DNA of 64,000 nt, taken from the NCBI GenBank assembly GCA_964016885.1, contig OZ024742.1, positions 172,484,001 to 172,548,000 of the forward strand, in the 5' to 3' direction. The notes beneath the pieces are model-generated. The model was given only the letters and a program-made list of their open reading frames with translations, ran no database searches and was not told where the DNA came from. Positions 331-63,875 of the stretch are shown piece by piece; positions within the stretch are counted from its first letter, which is position 1; every line of letters begins with the position of its first letter. The stretch comes from Eledone cirrhosa (taxonomy: Eukaryota). The translations under genes were made by a program, and so were the position numbers.

Positions 331-595
331 TGAATATAGACATAGAATATTCGAAAATATTCTGTATGTTTATAATAAACATTTTGAAGACCTAATCGCT
401 ATAGAATAGAATACGTCACGTATTACAATTAGATTCTCGATAAAAGCAAGGGAAGTAATCGAATTGATTACTTCCCTTGCTTTTATCGAGAATCTAATTG
501 TAATACGTGACGTATTCTATTCTATAGCGATTAGGTCTTCAAAATGTTTATTATAAACATACAGAATATTTTCGAATATTCTATGTCTATATTCA
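331..595. repeat. Perfect palindrome, 130-bp arms, 5-nt loop GAATT
   Basis: 331-460 is the reverse complement of 466-595, read directly. Confidence 0.95.
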
Positions 596-731
596 TATAT
601 ATATATATATATATATATATATATATATATATATATATATATATATATATATATATATATATATGAATATAGACATAGAATATTCGAAAATATTCTGTAT
701 GTTTATAATAAACATTTTGAAGACCTAATCG

Positions 732-1403
732 CTATAGAATAGAATACGTCACGTATTACAATTAGATTCTCGATAAAAGCAAGGGAAGTAATCAATTCGA
801 TTACTTCCCTTGCTCTCAATGATCATCTCCACACATCTTTTCACAGCAAAATCAATGTTAATGGATGGGTACAGTGACACCACATCCATGCTGCCTATTA
901 TGCAGTTGGATAGGCTCCTGTTTTTGTTGCACTCACTGATTCTGCTGAGGAGGTCCTCTGTACTTTCACATACATCTGGGGACATCTTGATTATGGGGCG
1001 TATAACCATTGAGAGGAAGTAGGAGATCCTGTAGTTGCTAGCTATATTAGCTCCGCATACAGGTCTTCTATAGAATAGAATACGTCACGTATTACAATTA
1101 GATTCTCGATAAAAGCAAGGGAAGTAATCAATTCGATTACTTCCCTTGCTCTCAATGATCATCTCCACACATCTTTTCACAGCAAAATCAATGTTAATGG
1201 ATGGGTACAGTGACACCACATCCATGCTGCCTATTATGCAGTTGGATAGGCTCCTGTTTTTGTTGCACTCACTGATTCTGCTGAGGAGGTCCTCTGTACT
1301 TTCACATACATCTGGGGACATCTTGATTATGGGGCGTATAACCATTGAGAGGAAGTAGGAGATCCTGTAGTTGCTAGCTATATTAGCTCCGCATACAGGT
1401 CTT
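732..1403. repeat. 336-bp tandem duplication (palindrome core + antisense PLE RT fragment)
   Basis: 732-1067 repeated at 1068-1403; 1149-1451 is the reverse complement of RT segment 4267-4569. Confidence 0.9.
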
Positions 1404-2307
1404 GTTGGTGGTCCTATTGTCGGGTCGTCGACTGTCTTGTGGTCTTTGCGGTACCTCATGGTACGACAACCAGAGATATCAGAGTGTCATGTTTGTGGAC
1501 GCCACCCCTGGAGGGAAATTAGCTAACCAGTGTAGAAAGGCCCTGAGAAAGACCCACTTAAAAATAAAGGTGGTAGAAAAGCCAGGAACCACCATAAAAT
1601 CCCTGATCAGCAAAACCTACCCTTTTAAGAAAACCCACTGTACCAATAGGAAATGTATCATATGTAAGGTGAACCCCCGGATAAACTGTAAAACTAGAAA
1701 CGTAGTCTATAGCATAAGATGTACAGAGGGTACTTGCAGAAACACGACAACAACATACATAGGTGAGACAGCTCGTAGCATAGGTGAAAGGATAGACCAA
1801 CACTGGGGGGAACTAAAAGGACGAAAAAACGGGTCAGTACTATACGAACATGCTAGACAACATCATGACGGTAACATAGACAACATAGAAATTAGAATAA
1901 TATCTAAACATAGGAATGACCCAGCAGATAGGCAAATCAGAGAGGCCAGTGAAATAGAAATTAGAAGACCAAAGCTAAACAGAAAGAATGAGTGGAACAA
2001 CAACAACACCCAAACAAACAACACTGACCTAAGAGAAGTATAAATAAATAAGTAAATTAAATTAAATAAAATAAGATAAATAAATACATACACAAGCACA
2101 TAAACACACACTAGTCACCCAGCAGACAACACTATACACACTAGTCACACATCACACATAACACTATACACACACGCAAACGCATGCGCAAAGAAGACAA
2201 AATAAAATAAGATAAACAAACAAGCAAATAAATAAATAAATATATAGACAGACTGAACAAAAAAAATGGCGTAGACATACAACACAACAGGAGGAACAAT
2301 GAATATA

Positions 2308-2350
2308 ACACCACTGACGATGTTGCAGATGTGCAACGAAAGATTTATGT
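2308..2350 (+). ncRNA. Hammerhead-like motif in upstream pLTR (second copy at about 6454-6496)
   Basis: CTGACGA-T-GTTGCA gatg TGCAAC-GAAA-GATT-TA; core and stem II are good, stems I/III weak. PLE pLTRs are known to carry minimal hammerheads. Confidence 0.5.
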
Positions 2351-2536
2351 AAACTATATATATATGTGTTTGTCTATATTGTATCTGTATTATTTTTGAC
2401 CGCCGGTCAGTCAATGGCAACATTGAGGACCGAGTAAGTTAGATCGCAGATATATATATATAAAAGACAGCGAGAAGCGAAAACCAACCAAACAGTGAGT
2501 GTGTTCTGTTATTAATTCTGGCAATATTACGCAAAT

Positions 2537-61417: not shown

Positions 61418-61429
61418 TTTCGTAAATGA

Positions 61430-63081
61430 TTTACGAAACTACGCTGGAGCATCAACAACAAAAACAAAAGCAACAATATACGCACACACATATACAACAC
61501 ACATCCCAACAACAACAGACACACAGACACAAACAACAATAACAACAACAATAGCAACATACCCAGATACAACAACAACAATAGCAACATACCCAGATAC
61601 AACAGACACGCAGACACAAACAACAATAACAACACACACGGAGACAATAATAACAACAACACACACATCAACAACAACAACAATAGCAACATACCCAGAT
61701 ACAACAACAACAGACACGCAAACACAAACAACAATAACAACACACACAACAACGATAACACACACACACACGGAGACAACAACAACACAAATTTAATGGT
61801 AAAACATATGCCCAAGAGGAAGGAGCAGCCATTGGTGTTAGCATTGCAGGCGACATAGCTAACTTATTCATGGTATGGTGGGACAGTAGACTTAAACAAA
61901 AACTTAATGAACAATTAGAAGACAGATTAACCCTGATAATGTACTCCCGCTACGTAGATGATATAAACGTCGTAGTTAAGACACCCCCACTAAAGAACAG
62001 TCAGGAACTAGAGAAAAACACAATGGAAAGCATCCAGCAAATAGCAAACTCCATCCACCAGAGCATTAGAGTTACTATAGACTACCCAAGTAGACACCCC
62101 AACCATCAATTACGTGTACTAGACACAGAGCTCTGGTTAGATACTATTAACAACCAAAAACAAATCCTCCATTCCCATTATGCCAAACCCATGACTTCCA
62201 AACATCTGATCCACCGAAACTCGGCCATTTCGGACCATACCAAAATCAACATACTGATTGCGGATTTGGTACGGGTGATGAGAAATGTGTCCCGCATGTG
62301 CAACCCCGAAGAACTAGAGAGACACATACAACACTTCATCCACCGTATGCAGTTCTCTGGCTACAATCAGAGAGATAGAATCAGAGTGTATAAAGGAGCC
62401 AGAACCAAATGGGAAAAAATGGTAAATAATGACATAAATGGGACCTGCCTCTTGTATAGGAGCAAATTTTGGAATAGAATAGAAAGAACTAAGAACAAGG
62501 CCAATAGAATAAACTCATGGTATGATAGCAATAAATACCAGAGTGTAATGTTCATCAATACAACACCTAGAGGCGAACTAGCCTACAAATTTAGAAGGGC
62601 CCTAAAGAAACATAATCTCAATATTAAGATAGTAGAAAGACCTGGTACCTCCGTAAAAACACTTATTAGAAAGACATACCCGTTCCAAAGACCCTCATGT
62701 ATAGATAAGAAATGTATAACCTGTAAAATAAGCCCCCATATTAACTGTAAAACTAGAAATGTAGTATATAGCATAAGATGTACTGAAGGACAATGTAGAA
62801 ACAAAAATGTAGTGTACATAGGTGAGACAGCTCGTAGTATAGGGGAACGAATAAATGAACACTGGCGAGACCTCCAAGATAGTAAAGAATCATCTGTGCT
62901 CTACCAACATGCTAAGATAGAACACAGGGGTAAATTAGAGAGCATAGAAATAAAAATAGAATCCACACACAAGAAAGACGCAATGTTTAGGCTAATTACA
63001 GAGGCAGTAAGCATAAAAGAATTAAAACCAAAATTAAATAGAAAATATGAGTGGAACAGCAACATCACAACTTACAATTAA
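61430..63081 (+). pseudogene. Internally deleted PLE ORF (Asn-rich region joined to RT motif B', then GIY-YIG)
   Basis: Starts FTKLRW (cf. FTKIRW in element 1), Asn-rich repeats to about 61788, then jumps to KFNGKTYAQEEGAAIG. Confidence 0.85.
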
Positions 63082-63384
63082 GGACAAAATGAAAACACAC
63101 ACACACATAGAACAAACAACTTACAATTGAAAACACACACAAAATGAAAACACACACAAGACAAAATGAAAACACACACACATAGAACAAACAACCAACC
63201 AACAATAAATAAATAAATAAACAAACAAATAGAAAAATATAAATAGAAAAATAGAAAAATGAACACAAACACACACAGACACCCGGATGTGGCGCATGCG
63301 CAAACTGAGCACGCAACCCACACACAAACAAAATGGCGTAGGATAGAAGAAAGGAAAGGCACAGAAACGAAGAAAGAAATCCCC

Positions 63385-63429
63385 AGTCACTCAAGAGGTC
63401 ACAGAGTGTGTGACGAAAGAACTATGACT
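63385..63429 (+). ncRNA. Hammerhead-like motif in pLTR with CUCAAGA core (mirror copy at about 58167-58211, minus)
   Basis: AGTCA-CTCAAGA-g GTCACA gagtg TGTGAC-GAAAG aa CTA-TGACT; all stems formed but core G5 replaced by C. Confidence 0.55.
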
Positions 63430-63621
63430 ATATATATATAAACAACTATCTGGTTGTGGAACCAACCAACCAACCAGAAATTTATAAATTTGTAAATTTA
63501 TAAATATTTAATAAATTAAATTGAAGTGAAAGCAACTGGTGCGTGTGTTTCTTATTGGCAACATGACCCTCCCAAAGTATAACAATATATATATATATAT
63601 ATATATATATATATATATATA

Positions 63622-63875
63622 TAGTAATAATAATAAATTTGAAGACTAAAATCCAAAGAGGGTTCGATAAGGATAAATATATATAAAATATATAAGAACC
63701 GTAGGTCAAATATTCATTAAAATAACAGATTAAAGTTTAAGCAAAGAATCGGTGCTTTTACCATTAACGGGATCTTCTGAAACTAACAGATTGACTTTGT
63801 TAATTTCAGAAGATCCCGTTAAGGGTGAAAGAAGCGATTTTTGCTTAAACTTTAATCTGTTATTTTAATAAATAT
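63622..63875. repeat. Solo fold-back pLTR of the 22330-24627 PLE family in (TA)n
   Basis: Matches 22330-22490; 63713-63787 inversely repeated at about 63798-63875. Confidence 0.8.

Follow-up and report, generated by a model that had tools for sequence, protein, structure and literature searches.

A 64,000-nt stretch of the Eledone cirrhosa genome (GCA_964016885.1, contig OZ024742.1, positions 172,484,001 to 172,548,000, forward strand; hereafter the window) contains 21 long inverted repeats, 17 of which are quite probably head-to-head end pieces of Penelope-like elements (PLEs), or of hammerhead-carrying passengers without an open reading frame (ORF), built at insertion by two coupled primings on opposite strands of a TA repeat. 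Sorted by family, 11 of the 21 are cut-down 3' ends (pseudo long terminal repeats, pLTRs) of families that code for PLE proteins, two (families D and K) are PLE-type ends from which no ORF was reached, four lie in ORF-less tandem hammerhead repeats (families I, C and J), and the remaining four resemble, and likely are, fold-backs formed at the level of DNA. The architecture is real, genome-wide and mostly a known PLE signature. Head-to-head arms as such have already been published; the parts worth following are a rule by which one long and one short outer end are paired, and the extension of that rule to the ORF-less repeats, or retrozymes.

Paired outer ends

The 3' ends of each of 12 families fall at two fixed positions, 35-142 nt apart, giving a long end with a tail and a short end without one. 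Family loci (handles beginning with L) came from genome searches with the arms of eight families, in each of which the best 40 or fewer of 18-2302 candidates were scored and 15-30 taken as loci; a ninth search, for family I, gave no match, probably owing to the high frequency of its words; the remaining families were read from loci already fetched, and 16 loci were extended. Pairs were counted in the window and in loci L001-L276, where 13 families were scanned and 12 gave pairs. Orientation is head to head in 135 cases versus tail to tail in five, with the 3' ends pointing outward and the inner ends varying, and the 135 comprise 130 long+short, four short+short and one long+long pair. Twenty family G pairs had been chosen by a pattern favouring long+short; after their removal the rule holds in 110 of 115 (binomial p = 4e-27 versus 0.5), and it holds in 7 of 8 pairs from evenly spaced background stretches. 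The outward ends adjoin (TA)n: 406 of 483 family 3' ends have (TA)3 within 28 nt downstream, against 9.7% of random positions (81 further ends matched neither family end position), which bears out both the enrichment beside TA repeats and the TA targeting that the original prediction had supposed.

Neither the span nor the centre of these palindromes is constant. Distinct spans number 23 in 23 pairs for family A, 15 in 15 for C, 11 in 11 for E, 37 in 43 for G, 11 in 12 for H and 10 in 11 for B, the centres of A and G differ among copies, and 15 of 25 family A loci have no inverted partner at all; varying centres and spans, together with the many non-inverted copies, indicate that the mirror half is made at each insertion. 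Sizes are nonetheless alike in some families (G mostly 140-230 bp, H ~230 bp, B ~540 bp), a consequence of a 5' point at which copies tend to stop: upstream of the anchor, divergence sets in within 16 nt for 57 of 72 strand-hits in G and 11 of 21 in H (window and L217-L241), at a TTAGT-like point. In B and H the inner ends accumulate 9 to 0 bases ahead of the hammerhead core, in G at the matching TTAGT-like point; separate 5' hot spots lie ~88 nt before the core in A and ~122 nt before it in B. Such pile-ups may be transcription starts, in which case short stumps could be copies of the 5' pLTR of an mRNA; a spliced short exon behind the G and H pile-ups is not supported, no shared upstream sequence having been seen.

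That the inverted repeats exist is not in doubt. Arm-by-arm alignment and self-BLAST of the microsatellite-masked window recovered all 21 of the intervals in which the original prediction had placed about 20 long inverted duplications, with 54-361 aligned arm bases in the outer 400 nt at 85-100% identity, and local arm scores of 72-684 versus 12-68 for a reversed but not complemented control. Arms are diverged (85-98%) in 17 intervals and the aligned outer arm is 100% identical in four (those starting at 331, 445, 46722 and 57951). A single pipeline gave inverted-repeat counts of 25 in the window (0.39 per kb, 2-5 per 10 kb) and 67 in 400 kb of the genome sampled as 40 evenly spaced 10-kb stretches (0.17 per kb, 0-8 per stretch). 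The window is ~2.3-fold richer, but the feature is genome-wide, at about one inverted repeat of any kind per 6 kb. Chance pairs of abundant repeats fall within this count, so the half million inverted repeats extrapolated to the 3.0-Gb assembly is an upper-side estimate; a very abundant short interspersed element (SINE)-like repeat of ~190 bp, found at 7100-7300, in about ten other places in the window and in 40 places in the background, gives such chance inverted pairs (e.g., 7108/9673).

Coding families, retrozymes and hammerheads

Seven families (A, B, E, G, H, M and O) and PLE1 connect to coding sequence for a reverse transcriptase (RT) with a GIY-YIG endonuclease, and PLE2 codes for these within the window, in keeping with the PLE enzymes originally invoked; the 11 intervals concerned comprise three of family A, two of H and one each of B, E, G, M, O and PLE2 (Table 1). 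ORF remains lie upstream of the ends of all seven families. Family E runs into a 627-aa RT/GIY-YIG ORF (L184, L185), B into RT/GIY-YIG coding sequence (L186, L187) and G into PLE coding sequence (L259, L268, L271, L273); family A has a ~1.5-kb 3' untranslated region downstream of PLE coding sequence (L189, L191), and O leads to a GIY-YIG-like frame in L252, read by eye. Family D extends at least 740 bp upstream, with no ORF reached in eight extended loci.

PLE1 is the full-length representative. Its ORF (2516-6166, 1216 aa, the longest in the window) has an Asn-rich insert, an RT with YVDD, a CX4CX2C linker and a YIG endonuclease motif; its two pLTRs are 100% identical and contain the first codons of the ORF, and the partial tandem is a repeat of 5576-6350. 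PLE1 and its relatives display what defines endonuclease-bearing (EN+) PLEs: an RT/GIY-YIG ORF, pLTRs that include the ORF start, a partial tandem, and an inverted 5'-truncated copy with a tail on one side. Among named relatives of the PLE1 ORF the closest is labelled Octopus vulgaris (68% identity). Pfam matches were weak and below curated cut-offs (RVT_1, E 2e-4; GIY-YIG for family B, E 1e-3), and a PDB sequence search gave two weak RT matches (E 0.06 and 0.17). The linker, present in PLE1 and PLE2, is as described for Neptune and Nematis (PMC8557442), and serves as a lead to the clade rather than as placement in an RT tree. Asn-rich low-complexity inserts occur in the ORFs of both PLE1 (3270-3760) and PLE2 (60900-61790), the latter with inverted pieces at its centre; similar inserts have been described in rotifer PLEs (PMC3846280).

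Families I, J and C are, by genomic criteria, non-LTR retrozymes, that is, ORF-less tandem units with one predicted type I hammerhead each. Read upstream, they return to their own start after 310, ~420-480 and ~420-440 bp, respectively; J units (L048, L035) reach ~480 bp, slightly over the 150-450 bp retrozyme range, C occurs as partial tandems, and no PLE ORF adjoins C upstream in 30 loci. Arrays of the 310-bp family I unit (L048, with more than 10 units, and L109) are near-identical, at 98-100%, to the window copy (L048:120-3600, L109:1-1160, L277-L285), several being head-to-head multi-unit arrays, and the family looks very young. In family C 14 of 15 head-to-head pairs are long+short, as are the family I pairs at 293-594 and in L283. 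This sharing of the long+short rule with PLEs is sequence-level evidence for insertion by PLE enzymes, a mobilisation argued earlier mainly from distribution and phylogeny. Non-autonomous hammerhead repeats, as in the original prediction, are supported for these three families (4 of the 21 intervals), which carry PLE-type ends.

At 293-594 both family I arms end at the predicted cleavage site, hence no ribozyme core remains in the window, which suggested that retrozyme stumps owe their 5' end to ribozyme cleavage. We rejected this idea: among family I palindromes centred within reach of the search pattern it fits one of nine genome-wide, the other eight having an arm that runs at least three bases past the site (two of the nine are identical). 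In vitro, hammerhead cleavage was found to be unnecessary for insertion (PMC11167929).

Hammerhead motifs are far more frequent than in shuffled sequence. A strict type I descriptor gives three hits in the window (cores at 24787, 28595 and 56419) versus a mean of 0.04 and a maximum of 1 in 100 local dinucleotide shuffles, and a second descriptor gives three versus none in 40 shuffles. Just two of the three strict hits fall within the inverted repeats under study, and hammerheads are decayed in most window copies; the second descriptor matches 38 times (25 distinct) in the 400-kb background versus 0 in five shuffles, so intact hammerheads show no enrichment in the window. Nine families pass the descriptor as type I (A, B, C, D, E, H, I, J and PLE2) when majority sequences are used, or the monomer for family I, which makes the earlier figure of about ten hammerhead families a fair one; that most are non-coding is right for the window copies and wrong for their families. 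A pLTR hammerhead is thus present in the majority sequences of A, B, D, E, H and PLE2, while those of G, K, M and PLE1 do not pass, M and PLE1 showing a core, stem II and GAAA by eye. The GAAAC of family G was ruled out as a hammerhead, there being no core upstream by descriptor or inspection. The descriptor is no fair test of family O, whose majority sequence was built from two hits; inspection by eye (L246, L252; window 53998-54290) shows a hammerhead-like motif whose stem I is weak and whose core has a U3-A8 pair, a variant described for Schistosoma PLEs. Both PLE2 cores, at 58206 (-) and 63390 (+), have a change at G5. An Rfam scan of the window returned nothing at the gathering threshold and, at E <= 10, no hammerhead family among the 150 listed of 274 matches, where microRNA-like TA matches appear. 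Minimum-energy folding of nine short hammerhead stretches gave z from -2.7 to +0.25, which is weak evidence, two of the stretches having ended short of stem I.

Two primings or one

Much of this resembles what is known. An inverted 5'-truncated copy with a one-sided tail is typical of PLEs, as is a bias to microsatellites (Craig et al. 2021, PMC8557442; Arkhipova et al. 2013, PMC3846280), and the elements described here share with published EN+ PLEs the head-to-head arms, one-arm tail, partial tandems, (TA)n targets, Asn-rich ORF inserts and a hammerhead near the 3' end. Unlike described PLEs, they come with a counted long+short rule across 12 families, tails of 35-142 nt versus the 30-40 bp described, and products that are mostly stumps of 100-600 bp. 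PLE minimal hammerheads have been reported as pairs 100-700 bp apart on opposite strands, dispersed motifs being ascribed to truncated PLEs (Cervera and de la Pena 2014, PMC4209133). Ours are similar in their short or palindromic helix III, long helix II and heterogeneous families, and differ in predicted core variants (U4C in D, U4A in H, a stem II region of ~85 nt in E) and in that no core was found in G. Animal non-LTR retrozymes have also been described (Cervera and de la Pena 2020, PMC7229834) and linked to PLEs (Li et al. 2026, preprint 10.64898/2026.07.22.740005). Families I, J and C are like them in being ORF-less, low-GC tandem units of 310-480 bp with one putative type I hammerhead each, and unlike them, as far as described, in having 3' ends paired in the PLE manner and inversions that lie head to head in (TA)n. 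The word 'tail' occurs 0 times and 'inverted' once, in a reference title, in the main text of the preprint, and 'inverted' 0 times in the covered text of the 2020 report; literature searches and word searches of the compared papers yielded neither end-pairing counts nor tails or inversions on retrozymes.

How PLEs form tandem and inverted structures is a named open question (PMC8557442). We hypothesize that a dimer of the PLE protein nicks both strands of the self-complementary (TA)n, one subunit beginning reverse transcription at a distal RNA site, which would yield the long end with its tail, and the other at a proximal site, which would yield the short end. Each cDNA would stop independently, often at a preferred point that is maybe the RNA 5' end, and the two would be joined head to head via microhomology or a few filler bases; failure of one cDNA would leave a non-inverted copy with either end, and retrozyme RNAs that share this pair of start sites would be served in trans. 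We lean, if only slightly, to the broader proposal that PLE insertion is a coupled twin-priming by an asymmetric dimer, the distal RNA start always on one strand and the proximal on the other, that retrozymes have retained this two-site handle and go in by the same reaction, multi-unit arrays included, and that a large share of the roughly half million inverted repeats, a potential reservoir of hairpin RNA, arose in this way. Any effect on double-stranded RNA or RNA editing is a guess. The two-start mechanism fits the behaviour of Poseidon PAc (anole) in vitro, where purified protein cuts and extends both strands, two RNA start sites flank the tail, targets are AT-rich and a dimer is predicted (Frangieh et al. 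2024, PMC11167929). Our genomic counts predict different start sites on the two strands of one target, and a near-absolute long+short rule over 12 families offers that existing system a sharp test.

A single priming followed by fold-back self-priming of the cDNA (or by use of an antisense template), with the endonuclease trimming one end at the base of the tail, has precedents: palindromes at the inverted junctions of Adineta PLEs prompted a proposal of such a fold-back (PMC3846280), and the tail has been ascribed to endonuclease-mediated resolution (PMC8557442). Of 110 pairs compared for 5' reach, it is favoured by the 33 with arms equal within 20 nt and the 11 with the long-end arm further, but the short-end arm reaches further in 32 (34 being unresolved), and in several pairs the long-end arm consists of hardly more than the tail. 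Where the short-end arm is the longer of the two it cannot have been copied from the long-end cDNA, and a cDNA begun at the short end could not have supplied a tail, which speaks against a single fold-back; long+short in 130 of 135 pairs, with either arm the longer, argues instead for two coupled primings on opposite strands. The equal arms, moreover, cluster at family-specific 5' stops also used by non-inverted copies. Arms share subfamily letters above chance (6 of 17 exact versus a mean of 1.4 and a maximum of 5 in 2000 permutations), as a fold-back would have it, but this fits both models, whether through one RNA template or one source active at a time. We regard the fold-back route as improbable. 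Still less can be said for the guild of non-autonomous palindromic hammerhead elements, replicating as palindromes through PLE enzymes, that the original prediction pictured: families G, H and B do have many palindromes of similar size and three families are truly ORF-less, but G, H and B lead into PLE coding sequence, the similar sizes follow from the preferred 5' stop, G centres and spans differ between copies and G has no hammerhead core, while 11 of the 21 intervals are truncated ends of PLE-coding families and four are not retroelement ends. It is largely refuted, and very improbable.

Scarcely credible, finally, is an origin as class II terminal inverted repeat elements (miniature inverted-repeat transposable elements, MITEs) or as assembly artefacts. 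The four intervals with identical outer arms and a perfect 336-bp tandem at 732-1403 could point to artefact, and no independent contig was seen bridging an inversion centre (contigs over 1-7300 and 13690-14830); against this, 17 of the 21 arm pairs are diverged and the same architecture recurs in more than 130 loci on many contigs. Ordinary MITE families would have symmetric terminal inverted repeats and uniform length, whereas the ends seen here show asymmetry and polarity, length is not constant, and 3' ends of retroelements make up the arms; target-site duplications are unreadable inside (TA)n.

Several points weigh against two coupled primings. We infer the coupling of the two starts from the end counts, and later deletions shortening a long-end arm could mimic a longer short arm. 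Since most loci are the 40 top scorers among the ~900-2300 candidates of a query, young, long copies make up too much of the sample, and the ratio of non-inverted ends, 108 long to 108 short, depends on the query. Family J was left out of the pair counts owing to spurious matches from its internal TA tract, and K gave no scorable pair; in the window both ends of the O pair look short and the left end of J at 28341 is atypical. At the population level, start sites did not differ between strands in the in vitro study (PMC11167929). No autonomous partner was identified for C, I or J, and neither D nor K could be followed as far as an ORF. In annotation, MITE, miRNA-like hairpin or unknown repeat would be the labels otherwise given to a large class of short non-coding palindromes here, which the proposed origin explains.

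DNA fold-backs and other features of the window

The features discussed are collected in Table 1. The window has 28-47% GC by 2-kb bin and abundant TA, CA and AG tracts.

Table 1. Elements and inverted repeats of the window (L, long end; S, short end; first call, interval as originally predicted where it differs)
Feature	Position	First call	Strand	Description
PLE1	813-6750		+	Full-length PLE; pLTRs 2270-2600 and 6416-6746; partial tandem 1453-2220; inverted RT pieces 813-1451
PLE2	57951-63588	57951-63587		Two head-to-head RT/GIY-YIG-coding copies, 58509-59915 (-) and 61759-63081 (+); L left (tail ~58 nt), S right
Family H / PLE3	22333-24628	22405-24627	-	Truncated PLE; RT-thumb/GIY-YIG frame, 324 aa, 23367-24341 minus
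PLE3 inverted short arm	24353-24628			Arm of PLE3; predicted U4A hammerhead core is that of the family as a whole
Family H stump	63627-63868	63713-63875		L left, S right
Family M / PLE4	33123-34704	33180-34701		Two head-to-head GIY-YIG-coding 3' ends (tblastn and translation); L left, S right
Family E stump	14366-14827	14508-14827		L left (tail ~142 nt), S right
Family G stump	17758-17969	17840-17970		L left, S right
Family B copy	24669-24885		+	Non-inverted, S; intact minimal hammerhead, core 24787
Family B stump	45157-45700	45157-45603		S left, L right (tail ~96 nt)
Family A stump, older subfamily	44800-45140	44889-45144		L left, S right; hammerheads decayed
Family A stump, older subfamily	54404-55633	54525-55635		Later ~860-bp insertion 54584-55440 between arms
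Family A stump	56154-56600	56155-56510		S left, L right (tail ~85 nt); intact hammerhead, core 56419
Family O stump	53298-54290	53293-54287		Both ends look S; separate ~400-bp insert in centre
Family D stump	13691-14297	13697-14167		S left, L right; hammerhead, predicted U4C core
Family K stump	26013-26212	26013-26200		Arms start downstream of family GAAAC; no complete hammerhead; upstream not traced to ORF
Family I stump	293-594	331-595		310-bp tandem hammerhead repeat; L left, S right
Family J copy	28341-28894			Inverted, ORF-less tandem unit ~420-480 bp; intact hammerhead, core 28595
Family J stump	46722-47057	46722-46992		S left, L right, around the unit's internal TA tract
Family C stump	57343-57922	57350-57877		S left, L right (tail ~36 nt)
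Likely DNA fold-back	445-814			Perfect inverted copy of 445-594 (150/150 bases identical) across (TA)n tract 595-664, at PLE1 5' junction
Likely DNA fold-back	37670-37880			~42-bp arms around (TA)n tract; no homolog in fetched loci
Likely DNA fold-back	38231-39933			Old inverted duplication: 76 bp without homolog in fetched loci, plus abundant 640-bp repeat with C2H2-like frame; no hammerhead match
Likely DNA fold-back	39935-40371			One-off, inside old frame; inverted partner in 0/17 other genomic copies; no hammerhead match, no TA ends

Two of the four repeats that are likely DNA-level fold-backs are centred on (TA)n. The repeat at 445-814 includes the centre filler of 293-594, which makes it a copy of 445-594 and likely a DNA fold-back rather than a second retrozyme insertion. 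For the same reason we rejected a reading of 665-6750 as a chimera of retrozyme and PLE1 cDNAs, since 665-814 is exactly 445-594 inverted, filler included; mixed-family head-to-head junctions were not found in the window and 285 loci. The perfect tandem at the PLE1 5' junction (732-1403, within 732-1451) consists of inverted flank and inverted PLE1 RT sequence, and is either a very recent rearrangement or an assembly error. The other three non-PLE duplications lie within 2.7 kb (37670-40374), two of them abutting at 39933, and this clustering hints at one local repair event. The 640-bp repeat is presumably RTE-like, and the frame that holds 39935-40371 we take to resemble that of a long interspersed element (LINE).

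A second family G copy lies at 46498-46663. Within the family O repeat, 53560-53960 is a separate TA-flanked insert with a decayed hammerhead-like motif and two relatives (in L115 and L120). The insert at 54584-55440, whose end matches window positions 1-80, resembles what we assume to be a Helitron-associated element. An uninterrupted non-LTR retrotransposon ORF of 1141 aa (Pfam RVT_1, E 5e-23) occupies 18801-22226, preceded by a second 3' fragment of the same family at 18171-18681, and a further PLE2-family copy, with its long end, starts at the right edge of the window (63973-64000).

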